From: Escherichia phage Snoke
Sequence record: MK931441.1
Reading direction: 5' to 3' (one strand)
DNA length: 44,454 nucleotides
Below, in pieces: positions 3,375-41,398 of this stretch; within the stretch, counting starts at the first letter, position 1; the number at the start of each line of letters is the position of its first letter. The position numbers were made by a program, and so were the translations under genes. Under the pieces are notes generated by a model. That model had not been told where the DNA came from. It searched no databases and was given only the letters and a program-made list of their open reading frames with translations.

Positions 3375-5267
3375 ATGCTATTAACTTTAGCGCCACAGGG
3401 TTTATCTATGAGCTTACTTACATCTCTAATCAGCCACCAGATATGGCTGCAACGCACTGCATCCGGTGAGGTGAAAGACCTCGCGCCGTTCATTAAGGAG
3501 ATGCGGGACGAAATAAAACGGCAGGTGCTGTTATTCGGTGACGACGGGCGGAGCACTGCGCGACTGAATAAACTGTTACTCGACCTTGAAGAAGCGCTAA
3601 CCGGACTTACCGGCGATTGGCAAACAAAGCTGACAGAAGACCTTATGGAACTGGCGGCGTATGAGGCCGAGTGGAATGTAAAGACACTGACCACCAACGT
3701 AGATGCGGAATTTGTTACGCCTACTGCCGAACAGGTGTGGTCCGCTGCCGAGTTTCAACCCTTATCATTAAGCGACAAGCCTGTTGATTTCACTAAGCTG
3801 ATGTCGGGATGGGGTGAAACCGAAGTAGCACGTCTCGTAACCGGCGTTAAGATGGGCTTTGTTCAGGGTAAGACAACACGGCAGATTGTTAAGAATGTTG
3901 TTGGTGCTGGTGGTTTGGCGGACATTTCAGAACGTAACGCGGCTACTGTAATCCGCACCGCGCTGTCTCATGTATCCAACGAGGCCCGTAACGAGACGTA
4001 CCGCCAGAACGACGACATCATCGAGAAGTACGAGTGGGTGTCGACGCTGGACAGCCGTACCAGTACGATTTGTAGGGCCAGAGACGGAATGACGTGGGAA
4101 ATCGGTAAGGGGCCGATGCCCCCGGCCCATCCGAATTGTTTACTTGGGGACACTGTAGTATCTACCGGTAGTCCTGTTTCTAACATTTTTAAACGGGCGT
4201 ACAAAGGCACTGTAGTCTATGTCTCTACAAAGTCCGGTCGCACCTTGTCTATCACCCCAAACCACCAGGTATTGACTACCAGTGGTTGGGTTGCTTCCGG
4301 CCTTCTCAATGTAGGTGACAAGCTCGTGTGCGCTAAGGACTCTACTCTCTCTCTCAAGCATAAGGAACACAACGTTGTAGCCAAGTTCTCCGATTTGTTT
4401 AGTGCGGCTAATGTAGCGGTCAATCCTGCGGCGGTCCGTACAAGCCCAACCTCCACCGAAGACTTCCACGGCGACGGAACCGACGGCGAAGTCGAGATTG
4501 TACTTGTCGACCGCCTTTCCTGGGATAAAGTCAAGTCCGGACTGAATAAGCAAATCATTGACAAGGAACTCCCAGTGACTGCCGGCGTTGATGACTCCCT
4601 CCCTGGCTTTGGCTCTGCGAAGCAGTTCGGCATGGTCGGCCTTTCTCCCTCGGACAGCTTCGTGCGCGGCGGCAGAGAGAGCGAGGCGCTCCTCGGGAGT
4701 AGCTTTAGCCATTCTGATAAACATAGCGTCGCTACCTCCGCGAATGGTAACGCCGTTCTCTCTGAGAACGCGTATGACTGGACTACACGAAACGCCGATA
4801 ATCTTTCCGATTTCAACTGGTCCGATGCCGTTGGCGTAGAGCTTGATGATGTTGTCAATTTGGTCTTTAGTGAAGCTGATTTTTGCGGGCATGTTTATAA
4901 CCTCGAAAATGAACAGAACTGGTATCTTGCGAATGGAATTATAGCACATAACTGTCGCTCAACAACCGCGCCTGTAATCAGTTCGGAGTTCGACTTCCTC
5001 GATAAAGGCGCAAAACGCGCGGCTAAGGGCGCGGACGGCGGTATGCAGGTAAGCGCGGACACCACCTATTACGAGTTCCTGAAACAACAACCGGCATGGT
5101 TTCAGGACCAGGCGCTTGGTTCTGTTCGCGGTAAGATTTTCCGCAACAGCGGTATATCACCAGAGGAGTTTCGCGTAATATCTGTAGATGGTTTCGGGAA
5201 TCCGCTCACGCTTAAGCAGATGGCGGAACTCGATAAACGTGTTGCTGATTATCTGAAAGGGGATTAA
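3375..5267 (+). CDS. head morphogenesis protein precursor (Mu F / SPP1 gp7-like) containing an intein
   Basis: Extein carries the minor-head-protein signature DSRTSTICRARDG...PPAHPN-C-R; 630-aa precursor = about 358-aa extein plus 272-aa intein. Confidence 0.8.
   Translation: MLLTLAPQGLSMSLLTSLISHQIWLQRTASGEVKDLAPFIKEMRDEIKRQVLLFGDDGRSTARLNKLLLDLEEALTGLTGDWQTKLTEDLMELAAYEAEWNVKTLTTNVDAEFVTPTAEQVWSAAEFQPLSLSDKPVDFTKLMSGWGETEVARLVTGVKMGFVQGKTTRQIVKNVVGAGGLADISERNAATVIRTALSHVSNEARNETYRQNDDIIEKYEWVSTLDSRTSTICRARDGMTWEIGKGPMPPAHPNCLLGDTVVSTGSPVSNIFKRAYKGTVVYVSTKSGRTLSITPNHQVLTTSGWVASGLLNVGDKLVCAKDSTLSLKHKEHNVVAKFSDLFSAANVAVNPAAVRTSPTSTEDFHGDGTDGEVEIVLVDRLSWDKVKSGLNKQIIDKELPVTAGVDDSLPGFGSAKQFGMVGLSPSDSFVRGGRESEALLGSSFSHSDKHSVATSANGNAVLSENAYDWTTRNADNLSDFNWSDAVGVELDDVVNLVFSEADFCGHVYNLENEQNWYLANGIIAHNCRSTTAPVISSEFDFLDKGAKRAAKGADGGMQVSADTTYYEFLKQQPAWFQDQALGSVRGKIFRNSGISPEEFRVISVDGFGNPLTLKQMAELDKRVADYLKGD
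4137..4952 (+). mobile_element. intein (Hint domain), 272 aa
   Basis: Begins Cys1 CLLGDTVV (block A), SITPNHQVLT (block B, TxxH), ends VYNLENEQNWYLANGIIAHN (blocks F/G, terminal HN) followed by Cys+1 at 4953; splits conserved extein motif HPN|CR. Confidence 0.8.
4140..4892 (-). CDS. HTH + Vsr/DUF559-like PD-(D/E)XK endonuclease, candidate homing endonuclease encoded antisense to the intein
   Basis: Minus-strand ORF coextensive with the intein; ATG at 4892 preceded by GAGG with 8-nt spacer; N-terminal HTH (ISFTKDQIDNIIKLYANGIGPVEIGKIIGVSCSPVIRVLRENG) and nuclease signature SHWEFLVNDLL...YNLDFAVGSVAVEVFGGGW...RRRIDRYISRTKQIGELGYNVVF; ORF track gives upstream ATG at 4949 without SD. Confidence 0.6.
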   Translation of the reverse strand: MPAKISFTKDQIDNIIKLYANGIGPVEIGKIIGVSCSPVIRVLRENGVTIRGGSDAMFIRMAKATPEERLALSAAAHEAVRGRKADHAELLRRAKAREGVINAGSHWEFLVNDLLIQSGLDFIPGKAVDKYNLDFAVGSVAVEVFGGGWACTDRRRIDRYISRTKQIGELGYNVVFLMLERESRVLSAHELVTYIEKAGSNPTTGSQYLVVWGDRQGATGLCRDIDYSAFVRPFKNVRNRTTGRYYSVPK

Positions 5268-13413: not shown

Positions 13414-13587
13414 TTATTCCTTCAATTGCATTGGGTAGAAGTTAACGAGTTCTCCTTTATCCCGAAGCCGTGAATATTCATCTAACGCATCTTCCCGGCT
13501 ACTTACAGCATAGATATCATTCCACTCGTCCCATTCTTTGTCGTATACGCGGATTATGTATATTGTTTTCATTACATTCTTACTCAT
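13414..13587 (-). CDS. hypothetical protein (accessory island)
   Basis: Minus-strand ORF; internal ATG at 13587 has SD AGGAG 8 nt upstream; AT-rich. Confidence 0.35.
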   Translation of the reverse strand: MSKNVMKTIYIIRVYDKEWDEWNDIYAVSSREDALDEYSRLRDKGELVNFYPMQLKE

Positions 13588-13810
13588 CAATATTACTCCT
13601 GTACTCTCGTAACTTCTCCAGACTTTCAATTGCTTCCGCTAAGTCGGTTCCGGTGTCTTTGTGCCCGCGAAGGCCCATACACAATAGCTTCTTCAATGCG
13701 TGCTGTAGCGCCGGGTCGCGAATGTCGAAGGCACGCAGCACATCATAAACGTCTACTGTCATAGTGCTGCCGTGAGTGTTTGTCATTGTGCGGTTGTATT
13801 TATTTGTCAC
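13580..13810 (-). CDS. hypothetical protein (accessory island)
   Basis: Minus-strand ORF from track (GTG start); no motif recognised. Confidence 0.3.
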   Translation of the reverse strand: MTNKYNRTMTNTHGSTMTVDVYDVLRAFDIRDPALQHALKKLLCMGLRGHKDTGTDLAEAIESLEKLREYRSNIDE

Positions 13811-14000
13811 TGTTAACTCTCTTAAATCTGGCTATGCCTGACTCGTTAATGTTGCCTATTTCAAAGAAGCTGCGATATTTAGGCGAATACATTCTTACAT
13901 CGCCATTCTCTAGGGTGACCCCTTCATATACAGCACCTACTTCGAATCCATTTTTCTCCGCGTACGGACTCACATCGGTGCATTCATACATGTCTTTCAT
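13800..14000 (-). CDS. hypothetical protein (accessory island)
   Basis: Minus-strand ORF, coupled to upstream phosphoesterase gene. Confidence 0.3.
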   Translation of the reverse strand: MKDMYECTDVSPYAEKNGFEVGAVYEGVTLENGDVRMYSPKYRSFFEIGNINESGIARFKRVNSDK

Positions 14001-15127
14001 CCAAGCATCTCCGGTGAAATAGTTAAACGTGCGACCTCGCCATATTCGGCGCTATAAGTAATTACATTTGCACTACGACCTGACATCCATCCGCCGCGAG
14101 AGGCGTAGGCGTCTTTAGCCGCCAGGGTGCGGTGTTGCTCAACAACCATGTTACGGCTTTCTACAATCTTCTGATGGTGCAGGTGGCCTACATGGGCGTA
14201 GCTGTAAACACTCTCGCCGAACGCTTTGCGGAACTTGGCAATCATAACCGGTTCGATAGCGTCGAATCGTGCCTTATGCCCGTGGTGAAAGAACAGCGTC
14301 GTTTTGCCGTGTTGCACCATCTTGTAAACATCTGGCGACGTGTCGACGAACACCCGCGGCTCGTTGTCGTACAGCGTACTAAACATCTCAGCTAACCAAA
14401 TCATTCCGCTTTCGTCGTGGTTTCCTTGCACGATAAGCAAGCGAACATTTTTATGCTTAACCAGCGCCATACCGACAACACGGCGTACCATACGAATCAT
14501 GTAGCGGACCAGTTTCTGATAACGAGTGTCCGCATCAAGAACATGACCACTCGCTGGCGTAACCGCATCCAGACTATCGAAGTGCGCGAAGTCACCCAGC
14601 AGGTTAATAACCCCAGTTCCTGCATCTGGTGCTTTCTGAAACGCCGCATCGAACCATCGGGAGAACAGGTCTTCTGCAATCTTCATGTCCCAGTCGTCGC
14701 CGCTCTCGTCGGCCCAGGCCAGCATACCGAGATGGAAATCAGATACAGTGTAAAGATTAAGTAGTTTATCGTCACGTTTGGCGCGAACGGCTTTAACAGG
14801 CGCAACCGGCGTAATCTCTGACTTCATGCCCTCGATTACAGCTTTCATCAACTCGACCTGACGTTCAGCGTCAGTGTCTGTCTTAACCCATTGCAACTTA
14901 GTGTTGCCGAACTCGTCCACAAGCGACGACGTTCCTTTAATCTTGTAGCCGTCCGGGACAAGATGGCTAACGTCACGACCGTGACCTACGCCTTTCTTCG
15001 CCAGCTTCGCTTTACGGATACGAATAACTCGGTCTGAGATGCCGTATTTACGGGATATGTCGATAATCTTTGTTCCGGCGTTCAATTCTTCCTGTAACTG
15101 TTCGTCGGTTATTTTAATCCGGGCCAT
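13997..15127 (-). CDS. HTH domain + calcineurin-like metallophosphoesterase
   Basis: Phosphoesterase motifs in order: SDFHLG, GDFAHFD, GNHDE, HHGH, GHLHH; N-terminal HTH (ITDEQLQEELNAGTKIIDISRKYGISDRVIRIRKAK); SD GAGGAAG upstream. Confidence 0.7.
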   Translation of the reverse strand: MARIKITDEQLQEELNAGTKIIDISRKYGISDRVIRIRKAKLAKKGVGHGRDVSHLVPDGYKIKGTSSLVDEFGNTKLQWVKTDTDAERQVELMKAVIEGMKSEITPVAPVKAVRAKRDDKLLNLYTVSDFHLGMLAWADESGDDWDMKIAEDLFSRWFDAAFQKAPDAGTGVINLLGDFAHFDSLDAVTPASGHVLDADTRYQKLVRYMIRMVRRVVGMALVKHKNVRLLIVQGNHDESGMIWLAEMFSTLYDNEPRVFVDTSPDVYKMVQHGKTTLFFHHGHKARFDAIEPVMIAKFRKAFGESVYSYAHVGHLHHQKIVESRNMVVEQHRTLAAKDAYASRGGWMSGRSANVITYSAEYGEVARLTISPEMLG

Positions 15128-15166: not shown

Positions 15167-15358
15167 TCACTTCTCTTTGACATTCGAGTTGCAAGCCCAG
15201 ATTAAAATAAATACCCACGGCAGCAGAACCCAGCCAAGAAACAGATTGGCCATGAATATCGCTAATTTCGCTTTATGACCCCGCATATGGGCCACTAAAA
15301 ACGGGATAAAATAAACTAAAACGATAATGATTAAGAAGAACATAGTAATACCTGTCAT
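15167..15358 (-). CDS. small membrane protein, superinfection-immunity-like
   Basis: 63 aa from internal ATG with SD AGGAG; two hydrophobic segments and motif AHMRGHKAKLAIFMANLFLGWVLLPWVFILIWA; ORF track start at 15496 would include the promoter. Confidence 0.5.
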   Translation of the reverse strand: MTGITMFFLIIIVLVYFIPFLVAHMRGHKAKLAIFMANLFLGWVLLPWVFILIWACNSNVKEK

Positions 15359-15399
15359 GGTGTAGCTCCTGTTCGAGTTAACATTGTTGGTGTAAGTGA

Positions 15400-15428
15400 A
15401 TAGTATCCTATTATGTTGGGGTGCGCAA
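15400..15428 (-). promoter_or_regulatory. sigma70-type promoter (class II) for minus-strand accessory island
   Basis: Minus-strand TTGCGC-17-TACTAT with spacer accccaacataatagga, identical to spacer at 37984-38000. Confidence 0.55.
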
Positions 15429-15536
15429 GTAATGTGATAGAATAATTTTGCGCCTAGTGTCGCACACGAAAAGCGGGTGGTTCCCGTCTGGCGCATTTAC
15501 CATTAACCTGTAACCTCTTAACCAAAGGATTAAAGA

Positions 15537-15953: not shown

Positions 15954-16318
15954 ACGCGTTGCTCCAGTTTGCCCGTTGGAACTTCATAACCCGCCACAAA
16001 CGGCGGGAGTTTGACAGTATCGCCGACGGGCATAAAGCCGCGCTAATTGCTATGGGGGTTATGCAAGACGCGCCGGAAGCAACGCAGGACACAGGGCCGG
16101 AATGCCCCCCTGAGCTATTAACCACCTTCGAGAAGTACAGGGAAATCAAATTCACCCGCCGAGTGGACGATGATGGCATCAAGATGTACCCGCGCGAACA
16201 GTTAAGATGGTCGGATTTAGTGGCATACAGCACCGTTTCAGGCCAGAATATAGGCATGTTCGAATCTGACATCATCATGAGCTTAGACGCTATTTTCGAG
16301 GGTAGAAACGATGGCTGA
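15926..16318 (+). CDS. tail assembly chaperone extension reached by -1 frameshift (GT-like product)
   Basis: -1 frame open from 15926; candidate slip site GGAAAAG (15944-15950) immediately before the G stop codon TAG. Confidence 0.4.
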   Translation, partial: TASPIAGKVDALLQFARWNFITRHKRREFDSIADGHKAALIAMGVMQDAPEATQDTGPECPPELLTTFEKYREIKFTRRVDDDGIKMYPREQLRWSDLVAYSTVSGQNIGMFESDIIMSLDAIFEGRNDG

Positions 16319-18647
16319 TGTAGCTAGTTTAGTTGTAAAGGTATCAGAGCAAGGCGCGAAAGCTACATCGGACCGTCTTGATAATCTCTCCAAGTCGGCA
16401 AAAGTAGCGGGGGCAGCCGTAGCCGGACTCGCTTCAATCGTCGCCGCGACAGCGTACAAGGCCGCACAGGAACTGGTAGACTCCCAACGGCAACTGGACA
16501 AGATGTCCGCCAGCCTGAAAACGCTAACCGGAAGCACGCAGGGGGCAAGACAGGCGTTAAGCATCCTGCAAGACTTCGCGCGCGACACTCCGTATGGCCT
16601 TGAACAGGCGGTAGAGGGATTCCGTAAACTGGTGGCTCTCGGCCTTACCCCCTCAGAAGAAGCGTTGCGCTCCTATGGCAACACTGCCGCTGCTATGGGT
16701 AAAGACCTTAATCAGATGATTGAGGCCGTTGCGGACGCCAGTACATTTGAATTTGAGCGCCTTAAAGAATTCGGCATCAAGGCCAAGCAGAACAAAAACG
16801 ATGTTGAATTTACATTCCAGGGCACCACTACGGTAGTTAAGAAGAGCGCTGCCGACATCGAGCAATACCTGCTCAACATTGGTAACGTAAACTTCGCGGG
16901 GGCTATGGCGGACCAGGCCAACACACTTAACGGCGCCATCGCCAGTGCCAGCGACTCATGGTCGCAGTTAAAAATGACACTGGCTACCAGCCTTGATGTT
17001 GGTGCTCTTGCGGAGCCTATCCGGTACATCGATGATTTAATCCAGGAACTTAACGCACAGGTAGCATCCGGCGAACTCGCTGCTGAGATGCGTATGTGGG
17101 GCGACATCGCGTCAGAAGTGGGAAGCGCGATAGCGATGTCGTTCGACGCGGCATTTGGTTTCGTAGGCGACGCAATAAACGGGCTGAATGAACTTTGGGA
17201 CTTTAGCAGTAAAAGTATCACCGATAGCGGTGAACAAACGGCGACAACCATCGCGGAATCAGCCGCCGATGCGCTCGATTTCATTGCGGAAGAATTTACC
17301 GCGATGGAGCGATTCTTTGAAGATATGGTTAAAGGGGCACAGGACGCTGGCCGGTTGGTGAAAGCTGCCTTCACACCAGGGGAATCTGTAGACGTAGCAA
17401 AAAACATTAACTTCCAGTTAGGGATGGCACTGGATACTCAGCGCGATGTTGCGGACCTGACCCGTAAAAGTTTCCGCGAACAGGTGGAGGCTCAGCAAAA
17501 TATTGTCGCGCTTAAACGCGCGGCATATGACATCGACAAAGAAGCCGCTAAGGGAGAAGGTCTTAGTAAATTTAAGGTAACTGGTACTGGTGGCGGATCC
17601 GAAGATGATAGCGCAGGTGCAAAAGCCGCTAAGAAAGCCGCAGATGCGTTCGAGCGCCAGAAGAAAGCCGCTGAGGATTTCTACTACCAGTCGATTCATC
17701 TCAATGATGACGTATTCCAGAAAATAGAAGCCAACCAGGAACAGCAGCTAACCAAGCTACAGGAGTTTTACGGCAATCAGCTTCTTAGCGACCAGCAATA
17801 CGAGAACGCTAAAACTCAGATTATGCTGGAGGCGGACACTGCACGTCAGGAAGAACTCGCCAAGCGAGAGAAAGAACGGCAGGAAAAGAACCAGAAAGGC
17901 GAGGACTTCATGGCTCAGATTATGGGTCAGAATGCCGCAGAGCTTGAGCTTTTGGAGATTCAGGAACAACAAAAACTTGACGTTGCAGACCGATATCGCG
18001 AACAGAACCTTATTAACGAGGAGCAGTACCAGGCTGCGGTTAATGCTATAAACGACCAGTATGCTTTGAAACGTGCCAACGCTACCGGTAACGCTTTCGG
18101 AATGATGGCGGATAACATGAAGGCCTCACTAGGGGAGGCGTCTGCCGCATACAAAGCGTTTGCCATTGCGCAGGCCACCATCGCCACATACACATCCGCC
18201 ATCGAGGCTTATAAATCTGCATCGGCTATCCCTATTGTTGGATGGGTGCTCGGGCCTGTAGCAGCAGCTACAGCGGTAGCGGCAGGTCTCGCTAACATCA
18301 GCAAGATTCGTTCGGCCCGTGAGCAGGGCGGTAACTTAGCCGCAGGTCAGTTATCTACTATCGCGGAACGTAACAAGCCAGAAGTTATTATGCCTGCAGG
18401 GGCGTCACGCGTACGTACCGCGGAACAGATGCGCCAGATTATGGGCGAGAACGGCAACAAGTCAGGCGGTGACAGCGTGACAATCGTCAACAACACCACC
18501 GGACGAGTTGATTCCGCCGTTACAGAGCGTGACGACGAAGGGCGGTTACGTGTTATCATCAGTGAAACAGTATCGGCGGCGTTACAAGACAGCAACAGTG
18601 CAATCTCCAAGTCCCGCCGGGCTACACGAAACCAGCCGGGGTATTAA
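16311..18647 (+). CDS. tail tape measure protein
   Basis: 778 aa, long helical A/E/K/Q-rich protein after chaperone pair. Confidence 0.85.
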   Translation: MADVASLVVKVSEQGAKATSDRLDNLSKSAKVAGAAVAGLASIVAATAYKAAQELVDSQRQLDKMSASLKTLTGSTQGARQALSILQDFARDTPYGLEQAVEGFRKLVALGLTPSEEALRSYGNTAAAMGKDLNQMIEAVADASTFEFERLKEFGIKAKQNKNDVEFTFQGTTTVVKKSAADIEQYLLNIGNVNFAGAMADQANTLNGAIASASDSWSQLKMTLATSLDVGALAEPIRYIDDLIQELNAQVASGELAAEMRMWGDIASEVGSAIAMSFDAAFGFVGDAINGLNELWDFSSKSITDSGEQTATTIAESAADALDFIAEEFTAMERFFEDMVKGAQDAGRLVKAAFTPGESVDVAKNINFQLGMALDTQRDVADLTRKSFREQVEAQQNIVALKRAAYDIDKEAAKGEGLSKFKVTGTGGGSEDDSAGAKAAKKAADAFERQKKAAEDFYYQSIHLNDDVFQKIEANQEQQLTKLQEFYGNQLLSDQQYENAKTQIMLEADTARQEELAKREKERQEKNQKGEDFMAQIMGQNAAELELLEIQEQQKLDVADRYREQNLINEEQYQAAVNAINDQYALKRANATGNAFGMMADNMKASLGEASAAYKAFAIAQATIATYTSAIEAYKSASAIPIVGWVLGPVAAATAVAAGLANISKIRSAREQGGNLAAGQLSTIAERNKPEVIMPAGASRVRTAEQMRQIMGENGNKSGGDSVTIVNNTTGRVDSAVTERDDEGRLRVIISETVSAALQDSNSAISKSRRATRNQPGY

Positions 18648-23490: not shown

Positions 23491-25863
23491 ATGTCAAGCG
23501 GATGCGGTGACGTTTTAAGCCTGGCGGATTTACAAACCGCCAAGAAGCACCAGATTTTCGAAGCCGAGGTTATTACCGGTAAATCCGGCGGCGTAACCGG
23601 TGGTGCGGATATCGATTATGCGACCAACGCGGTTACTGGTCAGATGCAGAAGACTCTCCCTGCCGTGTTGCGAGATGCGGGGTTCTTCCCGGCATCTTTT
23701 GATTTCACTACCGGCGGGACATTATCGGCTACAGACCGCAATAAGGTCGTTTATGACCCAGTAAGCATGGCCTGGTATTCATGGGGCGGTTCTTTACCAA
23801 AGGTTGTCCCCGCGGAAACTAACCCGTTACTGGACACAAATTGGAAACCGCAAACAGACCCGAATCTACGCAATGACCTTGAAAATGGCATGTACAGAAC
23901 GGACGCAACCGCCGTTAAATATGTTCCTGGGGTGGTTATAAACAGCACAACAGATAACCGGGCCGCATTGTATGCATTCCCTGGCAAAGTTTATATCCCA
24001 AAAGACGTCCAGCTACGCTGTAATTTCCTGCCAGATGATGATGTAACAAAATTTACTGGTGAAGGAAAAATTCTCACGCGCGACCCATGGGGTAACGAGC
24101 ACATTTTCGACGTTTCACTGGCAACTCATGGGAGCAAATACACTGCATTCAACGTAATAAACCAGTTCGCTCGCCGCAATACGCGATGTCGTGTTGGTAT
24201 CATTGGTGACTCAATCACAGACGGCGCATACGGAACCGACTGGGTAGCCAACCCAACTGATTCAAACGGGGACCTTTCTTCGACTAATTACGACCACAAT
24301 GGCAATGGTGGCGCAGGTTCCTGGTTCCGTACCTTCACGGACTGGCTTAACCAATTTACAAAAAATGGTGCTTTCATCTTTAAAGCAGAAAACTGCGCAT
24401 CTTCTGGAAAGCGACTTATTGACGGGTGGGCTAATCGTAATTTCGACCATGGCTTTTTCAAAAACACTGCATACGGGAATGTTCCACCGGATGTCTGCTT
24501 TATGTCTATGGGCGTTAACGATAACGGCCAACTGGATACGTTAGGGTTCGATCAGTACTTATTCCGTTTTGAGCAGTTTATCCGTAAAGCATGGGGCTAT
24601 GGATGTGCTGTCTGCGTTGTTTCAATGAACCAGAATGGCTCACAATGGGCGGCTCTCGAGGCATCAATCAAGAAGCATATTGAACGCCTGTTCCCCGCGG
24701 TAGAGTTCCTCGATCTCTCTCAGGCAGTAACTGAGATGTACAGAGATGTCGGTAGCTACACCTTAGAAGAAATTTGCCGTCGTCCTACCGATGGCTCTTT
24801 CGACTACACGCACTTTGCGCCCCTTGGTCACCAATATATTGGCGCTTATGCCGCGACCAAGGTTATGCCTTATCGCGTCCATAAGGCCGCAAAAGGGAAT
24901 AATTTCCTGCCTGTGTCGCCTAACGATATCCAACCATTCGGGTACCCTTCCGGCAGTACATATGACGTTTCTATGGAGCGACTTAGCGGAAATTCATACC
25001 TGAATGGGCTTACCGGATGGGGCGTGGTTAAGCCCGCTACTGAAAATTTAACCATACGATATTTTGTCTGGTGTGATACTTCTGATATATCAATGGTTAT
25101 TTTTGAGCCATATAACCCTACTTACATTGGTTCCGGGCGCGCAAATACTGTATCAATACGCCAACAAGATACCCGTAATACAGCATATATCTCCGGTAAT
25201 ATCGCGAGTAATGGCGTCTCATCGTTTACGAACAAACTCACCACACGAACTGGGATCCTTAGAAAAGGACTGAATAAGATTGAGATTGTTTACGATGGTA
25301 CGCCGTCGAAAGTATACCCTCCCGCTCTGTTATTCAGAGGAGAGCTGAACGAATCATGTTCTCAAAACACCTCTGTATACTTGGCTGCAAATGCGATAAA
25401 GGGTGTTTACGGTCAATTAAGGGATAAAGCTGATTTGTTATTGTCATATGCGGCTGAAACCGCAAATGATGAAGCGCCGGATATGTACGGCGCTACTAAG
25501 TCATCAAATGTTCAAAATGTTGTCCTGTCAGCTTTGCCCGTTGATTGTGGTGTTGTTTTTTACTACAAACCCACGTCACAAAGTGGAGTTGTCGCCAAGC
25601 GAGTGGCGACTGGCATCGAGATCTCGACGATGCTTTTTGGCGCACTTACTGTTATCGGCACCTTGACTTGCGATGTGACCGGCGAAGTCATGCTCACAGC
25701 CGGCCTGGCACCTTCAGTACCTACAATAACAGTTAAACCCACTACCGGCGGCACTGTTCAACAAACTGTTACTGGTCACTCTGGCGGCAAGATAGCCCTG
25801 ATTAACAAGGGGGCTTCCGGTAACACAATAACGGTTAAATCTTCATCTCAATTCGTCATTTAA
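23491..25863 (+). CDS. tailspike / tail fiber with SGNH (GDSL) esterase domain
   Basis: SGNH blocks GIIGDSITDG (catalytic Ser), GVNDN, DYTHFAPLGH (Asp-His) at about 24180-24840; last gene of virion module. Confidence 0.7.
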   Translation: MSSGCGDVLSLADLQTAKKHQIFEAEVITGKSGGVTGGADIDYATNAVTGQMQKTLPAVLRDAGFFPASFDFTTGGTLSATDRNKVVYDPVSMAWYSWGGSLPKVVPAETNPLLDTNWKPQTDPNLRNDLENGMYRTDATAVKYVPGVVINSTTDNRAALYAFPGKVYIPKDVQLRCNFLPDDDVTKFTGEGKILTRDPWGNEHIFDVSLATHGSKYTAFNVINQFARRNTRCRVGIIGDSITDGAYGTDWVANPTDSNGDLSSTNYDHNGNGGAGSWFRTFTDWLNQFTKNGAFIFKAENCASSGKRLIDGWANRNFDHGFFKNTAYGNVPPDVCFMSMGVNDNGQLDTLGFDQYLFRFEQFIRKAWGYGCAVCVVSMNQNGSQWAALEASIKKHIERLFPAVEFLDLSQAVTEMYRDVGSYTLEEICRRPTDGSFDYTHFAPLGHQYIGAYAATKVMPYRVHKAAKGNNFLPVSPNDIQPFGYPSGSTYDVSMERLSGNSYLNGLTGWGVVKPATENLTIRYFVWCDTSDISMVIFEPYNPTYIGSGRANTVSIRQQDTRNTAYISGNIASNGVSSFTNKLTTRTGILRKGLNKIEIVYDGTPSKVYPPALLFRGELNESCSQNTSVYLAANAIKGVYGQLRDKADLLLSYAAETANDEAPDMYGATKSSNVQNVVLSALPVDCGVVFYYKPTSQSGVVAKRVATGIEISTMLFGALTVIGTLTCDVTGEVMLTAGLAPSVPTITVKPTTGGTVQQTVTGHSGGKIALINKGASGNTITVKSSSQFVI

Positions 25864-40674: not shown

Positions 40675-40964
40675 GCCTCGCAACTGACATCCTGAAACGA
40701 AGCGGCCTTGCGCCGCTGTCGCCGAGAGCAAACACTCAGATATACAAGCGCCGCCGTAATACGCTGTACCCAGAGATACAAGAACGGCGTAAAGCTATCC
40801 GCGCCTGTGGATTCCAGAACGGGAAAGCCGTGAATCTCGGTGAGTTTAAAACACAAGAACGCGCCGCAATCGCTAATCGACTATTTAATTACTGGAAATC
40901 GCTGGGGTACGATGATATTCCGACGAAACCCCAGAGACGACAATACATCTGGAGGCACAAATGA
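40671..40964 (+). CDS. hypothetical basic protein
   Basis: ORF from track, coupled. Confidence 0.3.
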   Translation: MSLATDILKRSGLAPLSPRANTQIYKRRRNTLYPEIQERRKAIRACGFQNGKAVNLGEFKTQERAAIANRLFNYWKSLGYDDIPTKPQRRQYIWRHK

Positions 40965-41398
40965 CTACTATCGCGTTTGACGGAAAGACGATGGCCTGTG
41001 ACACCCGAGTAACCGGAGACCACATCTACAACACAGATACCAAGATATATGAGAACGAGTTTGTTGTTATCGGTGTAGCAGGCAATGCTGAGGCTGGTAT
41101 CCTTTTAGTGAAGGACGATAGTATTTTAGTACCTAAGCACTACGATTTTGATTTCTCTGCTTTGGTGTGGGTTAAAGACATCGAAACGTTGTGCAAAGTA
41201 GAGTTCTACAAATCCTGGGATTGTGCACTAAGTTCGGTTATCCCTGTTGCAGATGGTTTTGCCGCCGTTGGTTCCGGTGCACCTTATGCACTGGCGGCTA
41301 TGTATTTAGGTAATACGGCAACACGTGCAATTACTATAGCAGAGCAATTCGACCCTAACACCGGAGGCAATATTATTACCAAACAACTATTAGGATAA
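40961..41398 (+). CDS. HslV-like Ntn-hydrolase peptidase (proteasome beta-type)
   Basis: N-terminal MTTIAF (Thr nucleophile after Met removal), VVIGVAGNAEAG and AAVGSGAPYALAAM match HslV blocks TTIVSV, VIAGFAGGTADAF and IAIGSGGPYAQAAA; SD GGAGG. Confidence 0.65.
   Translation: MTTIAFDGKTMACDTRVTGDHIYNTDTKIYENEFVVIGVAGNAEAGILLVKDDSILVPKHYDFDFSALVWVKDIETLCKVEFYKSWDCALSSVIPVADGFAAVGSGAPYALAAMYLGNTATRAITIAEQFDPNTGGNIITKQLLG

Follow-up and report, generated by a model that had tools for sequence, protein, structure and literature searches.

The window, that is, the whole stretch of DNA analysed, comprises 44,454 nucleotides of Escherichia phage Snoke (sequence record MK931441.1) and represents a complete, genome-length Kagunavirus (Guernseyvirinae). 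Collinearity with the nearly identical Escherichia phage Schulenburg extends over 42,070 of the 44,454 bases at 89-99% identity, with 99.5% around the gene considered here, imm. This gene heads a leftward cluster, containing imm, a 376-aa metallophosphoesterase gene, and three small ORFs, which interrupts the rightward tail module: the tail tube gene lies on one side of it and the tail assembly chaperone and tape measure genes on the other. The features of the locus, with the basis of each assignment in brackets, are as follows:

13414..14000, minus strand: three small ORFs ending the leftward cluster, at 13800-14000, 13580-13810, and 13414-13587 (ORF list, Schulenburg annotation)
13997..15127, minus strand: 376-aa metallophosphoesterase ('DNA repair exonuclease'), 39 nt after imm (PHROG 704, E 3.8e-164; weak Pfam Metallophos matches)
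15167..15358, minus strand: imm homologue of the PF14373 / T4 Imm family, encoding a predicted 63-aa small inner-membrane protein (ORF, Pfam, PHROG, T4 Imm alignment, AF2, dN/dS)
15359..15536, no strand assigned: divergent intergenic region, from which imm reads leftward and the tail assembly chaperone and tape measure genes rightward (five-genome alignment)
15366..15369, minus strand: Shine-Dalgarno site GGAG, 7 nt 5' of the ATG at 15358 (read from the sequence)
15378-15406, plus strand: promoter-like site, overlapping the minus-strand one (consensus scan)
15410..15438, minus strand: candidate sigma-70-like promoter of the leftward imm cluster, with ATCACA, a 17-nt spacing, and CATAAT (consensus scan)
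16311..18647, plus strand: tape measure protein, 778 aa (ORF; annotation in relatives)

The pair formed by imm and the phosphoesterase gene occupies the same locus in K1G, Golestan, RP180, and the Jerseyvirus SETP3, and imm is present there in all five Kagunavirus/Jerseyvirus genomes compared. The three small ORFs are replaced by variable cargo, namely a polynucleotide kinase and an ATPase in K1G and Golestan and an Ant-like gene in SETP3. A Cro-like regulator and no integrase were found in the Schulenburg annotation, in keeping with reports that phages of this group are lytic. A BLASTN search of 5,426 complete E. coli genomes returned no imm match, and imm is therefore neither a chromosomal gene of E. 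coli nor part of a resident prophage. An Imm protein 98.4% identical to that of Snoke is encoded at 23686-23874 of PLSDB entry CP088689.1, a 44,086-bp 'non-mobilizable plasmid' of an E. coli isolate from human blood; judging from its size, this entry is probably a Kagunavirus genome that was assembled as a plasmid, through either a carrier state or contamination.

Two other regions of the window were recorded in the comparison with Schulenburg. The head-morphogenesis (Mu F-like) gene at 3375-5267 on the plus strand is a 630-aa ORF with an intein, and the intein insertion (approximately 4131-5253) is the principal region without an alignment to Schulenburg, a phage reported without inteins (PMC6763661). 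The Pfam model Intein_splicing matched residues 263-526 of the 630-aa ORF with 39.3 bits (cut-off 35.8), and the junctions, read by eye, are ...PAHPNC|LLGDT... and ...IIAHN|CRSTT. Within the intein-coding insertion lies an antisense ORF of 269 aa (4140-4949, minus strand), so that two long ORFs face each other on opposite strands over 810 nt, an odd arrangement. A helix-turn-helix is weakly indicated in the antisense ORF (Pfam HTH_7, E 0.004; PHROG 'DNA binding protein', E 3e-4), which may be either a free-standing gene of the homing-endonuclease type or a chance ORF. Another stretch not aligning to Schulenburg holds a 145-aa ORF (40961-41398, plus strand) that matched PHROG 1040, 'peptidase HslV family', with an E-value of 1.2e-35, and had no Pfam match.

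The ORF at 15167-15358 has 63 codons beginning with ATG and ends in a TGA stop, which is included in the coordinates; its translation is MTGITMFFLIIIVLVYFIPFLVAHMRGHKAKLAIFMANLFLGWVLLPWVFILIWACNSNVKEK. Kyte-Doolittle analysis placed hydrophobic stretches at approximately residues 4-23 and 32-56, with a basic loop from H24 to K31 between them. An earlier sequence-only reading had described a 63-aa protein with two hydrophobic segments, and this description was confirmed by the ORF, the GGAG site, and the hydropathy profile; the motif quoted in that reading is an exact match to residues 23-55. Coding constraint was evident from the comparison of related genomes. The dN/dS ratio of imm was 0.01-0.19, and that of the core codons 28-63 only 0.01-0.05 with dS up to 1.38; the comparison of Snoke with Golestan gave 14 synonymous changes against 1 non-synonymous change in these codons (dS 1.38, dN/dS 0.01). 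Variable sites in Kagunavirus imm numbered 20, 6, and 37 at codon positions 1, 2, and 3, respectively. The ORF is clearly a real gene under strong purifying selection. Codons 1-27 (15278-15358) occur in Kagunavirus as two sequence types of the N-terminal helix, MTGITMFFLIII... and MSSLPVSLILFALL..., and between Snoke and K1G the synonymous divergence is saturated in codons 1-27 and just 0.26 in codons 28-63. This difference suggests, from the sequence comparison, a recombination breakpoint inside the gene between Kagunavirus alleles.

The reading frame of imm is open further 5' to an ATG at 15496, and the ORF delimited mechanically would encode 109 aa. The true product could accordingly be a protein starting at 15496 with an extra 46-residue N-terminal cytoplasmic extension, and this start, with an RBS, is the one annotated in GenBank record MK931438 (Schulenburg). 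The open frame 5' of the conserved ATG is 46, 28, 32, and 15 codons long in Snoke, K1G, Golestan, and SETP3, respectively, and in SETP3 it is without a start codon; the annotated lengths of Imm are 63 aa in K1G, 63 aa in Golestan, and 59 aa in SETP3. The ATG at the 63-aa start and its purine-rich Shine-Dalgarno site are conserved in K1G, Golestan, and RP180, and SETP3 has GAGG and an ATG. Indels of 12 and 17 nt lie a little 5' of this ATG, beside the imm RBS, in the five-genome alignment. The coverage of the Pfam PF14373 profile is the same with or without the 46 residues, and the extension overlaps a conserved promoter-like block. A transcript from the candidate promoter at 15438-15410 would be expected to begin near 15393-15403, which is inside the 109-aa ORF and 3' of the ATG at 15496. 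The 63-aa start is preferred because the extension is not conserved and overlaps the conserved promoter-like region, and the 109-aa reading, considered very improbable, was rejected on the five-genome comparison. The call of 63 aa made in the sequence-only reading is thus favoured by the comparative evidence, and its use instead of the 109 aa of Schulenburg is a small annotation improvement. The internal codon M6 was also considered as a start and was rejected, as no Shine-Dalgarno site precedes it and the K1G-type alleles have a codon other than Met at position 6.

The intergenic block at 15359-15536 contains long invariant runs, being almost invariant across Kagunavirus and largely conserved in SETP3, and is better conserved than the first 27 codons of imm. 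In K1G, Golestan, and RP180, the -10 hexamer of the leftward promoter candidate matches TATAAT perfectly, and a BPROM promoter is annotated at a roughly aligned position in SETP3. Promoter-like sites in the region numbered 3, compared with 3.5 expected from shuffled sequences, and since this count is not above chance the imm promoter is treated as a candidate only. Where sigma-70-like hexamers overlap on the two strands, leftward and rightward transcription could be mutually exclusive. No Rfam match was obtained for the whole Snoke genome, and the RNA fold z-score of the block was 0.21, showing no unusual stability, with two compensatory pairs in a 4-bp hairpin. The imm homologue of Kagunavirus K1B4 is transcribed during infection; RNA-seq, the only transcriptome of a relative, assigned it to the latest-peaking class, although the time course was coarse (MOI 100, 120 min, 30-min latent period) (PMC12645636).

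The 63-aa protein matched Pfam PF14373 (Imm_superinfect) with 51.6 bits and an E-value of 8.7e-14, profile positions 1-42 of 42 being aligned to residues 15-56, and the gathering cut-off of this family is 27.9 bits. The sequence-only reading had pointed to a resemblance to Imm_superinfect and named an HMM search as the check, and the full-length match upholds it. PF14373 was the sole Pfam match above threshold, all other matches falling below theirs, and PHROG 1039, 'immunity to superinfection', was matched with an E-value of 1.4e-23. T4 Imm (imm from NC_000866) scored 58.2 bits on the PF14373 model, and its BLASTP alignment with the 63-aa protein spanned 54 ungapped residues, with 30% identity and 57% positives (E 2e-12). 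In an alignment of 12 siphovirus, myovirus, and podovirus homologues, Y16, P19, I34, W43, W48, and W54 were invariant and R26, H28, F35, N38, G42, and L52 nearly so. An alignment of 40 sequences agreed with this picture, with W43 conserved at 90% or more; R26 was conserved at 90% or more in both alignments. An AF2 model built on the homologue alignment (pLDDT 94, pTM 0.73) had helices at residues 3-16, 18-26, 31-41, and 45-55, with W43 located in the turn joining the last two. Its structural neighbours among viral models, identified with Foldseek, were annotated Imm proteins only, with TM-scores up to 0.78-0.85. A profile search of PDB sequences yielded only a chance match to ABCB4 (E 0.36) and no solved relative, an NCBIfam scan gave no match, and a PADLOC-DB scan gave no defence-system match at E<=0.01. 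The protein almost certainly belongs to the PF14373 / T4 Imm family, and its membership is established as far as sequence matches and a predicted fold allow. An inner-membrane location with a periplasmic N-terminus is predicted from hydropathy and from the positive-inside distribution of R26, K29, and K31 and of K61 and K63. A lipoprotein reading was rejected: Cys56, located 8 residues before the C-terminus and missing in T4 Imm and in most homologues, does not represent a lipobox cysteine.

The gene had been annotated before, along with its family and presumed role. The Schulenburg record carries the description 'superinfection immunity protein, BLASTp similarity to T4 immunity protein P08986' (GenBank MK931438), and the Schulenburg genome announcement likewise names a T4-Imm-like superinfection immunity protein (PMC6763661). 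The homologue in SeF1 has been discussed in the same terms (PMC9409062), and all Jerseyvirus are reported to carry imm and to stay lytic (PMC8425127). The protein was found by tblastn in 380 phage records, including 263 of Salmonella phages and 72 of Escherichia phages, most of which already name it so. The imm gene is a routine annotated core gene of Jersey-like and Kaguna-like phages, for which the present analysis adds comparative evidence in favour of the 63-aa start and the finding that two residues lately shown to be important in T4 are conserved. The suggestion that such a gene is unusual in a phage without lysogeny genes, made in the sequence-only reading, proved wrong. T4 is itself strictly virulent, and the action of T4 Imm is exclusion rather than lysogenic immunity (PMC6832632); carriers in the phage collection searched belong overwhelmingly to virulent groups, namely Guernseyvirinae, Straboviridae (PSTCR6), Schitoviridae (Moo19), and Obolenskvirus.

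The PF14373 family as a whole is very large, with 17,245 cluster representatives at E<=0.001 and 1,682 in an indexed search, and its members include many N4-like podoviruses. No tape measure protein is known in N4-like podoviruses. The domain also occurs in bacterial chromosomes among housekeeping genes, one copy being fused to an RDD domain. Given the N4-like and chromosomal copies, the PF14373 domain is not bound to a single target and may not be linked to exclusion at all. The fused copy was seen in two bacterial assemblies (contigs L012 and L013, 7139-7897), in which a 252-aa Imm_superinfect and RDD protein is encoded directly upstream of a stand-alone 75-aa Imm_superinfect gene, with housekeeping and restriction-modification genes rather than phage genes as neighbours.

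The comparison with T4 Imm (P08986), the only characterised member of PF14373, shows both shared and divergent characters. The two proteins match PF14373 over the full profile and share a layout in which a membrane helix at the N-terminus precedes a conserved hydrophobic core of 42 residues, R26 and W43 of the Snoke protein align with R33 and W50 of T4 Imm, and both phages are strictly virulent. The Snoke protein is, however, 20 residues shorter, with a shorter N-terminus and without the polar C-terminal tail, and has P47-W48 in contrast to the G-W of most PF14373 members. T4 imm is expressed early, whereas the K1B4 homologue is in the latest-peaking class. T4 imm lies among early DNA-metabolism genes near gene 42/43, whereas Snoke imm lies in the tail module beside the tape measure gene. 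Snoke is, moreover, a siphovirus, the tape measure protein of which is unrelated in sequence to T4 gp29. The Imm proteins of the other Guernseyvirinae (Schulenburg QEG06814, K1G gp23, Golestan gp22, and SETP3 gp23) are orthologues at the same locus, with identities to Snoke Imm of 94-100% in Schulenburg-type phages, 73% in K1G, and 68% in SETP3, and are already named 'superinfection immunity protein' or 'immunity to superinfection'. HK97 gp15 is likewise a small inner-membrane protein proposed to block DNA entry via the tape measure protein; it is expressed from a prophage, whereas Snoke imm belongs to a lytic phage. No sequence relationship between HK97 gp15 and Snoke Imm is known. A preprint on T4 Imm cites HK97 gp15 as a parallel and draws a further functional analogy, from another family facing another attacker, with a small protein of the inner membrane by which an incoming helical domain that forms pores is neutralised within the membrane (bioRxiv 10.64898/2026.03.06.709160).

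Superinfection exclusion during the lytic cycle appears, on the sequence evidence, to be the most likely role of Snoke Imm, and is the expected reading for a virulent phage; that it would act at the DNA-entry step is considered moderately probable. The protein would consist of an N-terminal membrane helix (predicted at approximately residues 3-26 and kinked near P19), a short basic cytoplasmic loop containing R26, K29, and K31, and the conserved pair of short helices at 31-41 and 45-55 with the G42-W43 turn between them. Once made, Imm would stop the DNA of later-adsorbing phages from crossing the inner membrane; its target would be the portion of the incoming siphovirus tape measure protein that inserts into the membrane, the opening of the conduit would be prevented, and the phages excluded would chiefly be identical or closely related ones. 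The analogy is with T4 Imm, a small inner-membrane protein that blocks translocation of the genome: it co-purifies with part of the T4 tape measure protein, gp29, and binds the helical-bundle domain of gp29, and the substitutions R33A and W50A lower exclusion (bioRxiv 10.64898/2026.03.06.709160). A literature search found no published functional tests of Guernseyvirinae Imm homologues, and the membrane location, topology, expression timing, exclusion phenotype, and target of Snoke Imm are all inferred.

The tape measure protein as the direct target of Snoke Imm is put forward tentatively, by analogy with T4. In the Snoke tape measure protein, residues 637-664 (nt 18219-18302) form a hydrophobic segment, and residues 600-720 are the best conserved part across five Guernseyvirinae, with 68-75% of positions invariant against 28% overall. 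A hydrophobic segment within a conserved region is compatible with the target idea, and ordinary functional constraint explains it equally well. No similarity was detectable between the Snoke tape measure protein and T4 gp29 (best E 0.54), and with 30% identity to T4 Imm and a tape measure protein unrelated to gp29 the target is not transferable by homology. Co-variation of Imm and the tape measure protein was considered over five genomes, which are too few to separate it from shared descent. The tape measure gene lies approximately 950 bp from imm, across the shared divergent control region.

Three other functions were weighed against exclusion. Imm might chiefly shield the envelope of the infected cell from secondary adsorption damage, so that lysis from without is resisted and lysis timing is stabilised, instead of excluding competitors. 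The late peak of the K1B4 homologue, at a time when free progeny are abundant, would suit such a function, but phenotypes of this type are secondary to the genome translocation block in T4 (bioRxiv 10.64898/2026.03.06.709160), and no rI/rIII-type lysis-inhibition genes were seen in the Schulenburg annotation. Envelope protection as the chief function is thought unlikely, and it and exclusion are not mutually exclusive. A holin- or antiholin-like lysis function would fit the small size, the pair of hydrophobic segments, and the charged C-terminus; T4 Imm has been described as holin-like (PMC6832632), and the K1B4 study loosely ties its homologue to lysis (PMC12645636). Against this, no holin family was among the Pfam matches, only Imm_superinfect being above threshold, the holin/antiholin/endolysin cassette and the spanins of Schulenburg are located elsewhere, and imm sits with DNA-metabolism genes. 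The holin reading, considered highly improbable, was rejected on the lack of a holin family match and the location of the lysis genes elsewhere.

PF14373 might, finally, be a generic small-membrane-protein module, of which the Snoke copy is unrelated to superinfection and, for example, modulates a component of the host membrane in aid of the phage's own DNA entry, its replication, or its escape from defences. The great size of the family (17,245 cluster representatives), the chromosomal copies among housekeeping genes and the RDD fusion, the single characterised member, and the lack of a PADLOC or NCBIfam match would all be in keeping with such a module. Both residues important for T4 exclusion are, however, conserved in Snoke, and the domain recurs in virulent phages of different morphotypes, each time as a small stand-alone gene, and a generic function of the Snoke copy is accordingly judged improbable.

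A broader proposal, regarded as rather doubtful, is that proteins of the Imm fold are general blockers of tape-measure membrane channels in both myoviruses and siphoviruses. Snoke Imm would then bind the conserved C-terminal membrane-inserting segment of its own tape measure protein, which is unrelated to that of T4, with the conserved core as the blocking surface and the variable N-terminal helix tuning specificity. A siphovirus Imm that is paired with an unrelated tape measure protein constitutes a natural test of the generality of the T4 mechanism, and if the proposal is true, this 44-kb phage would be a small and tractable system for mapping the specificity of exclusion. For phage cocktails, an exclusion gene of this kind can cause interference between related therapeutic phages in co-infected cells.
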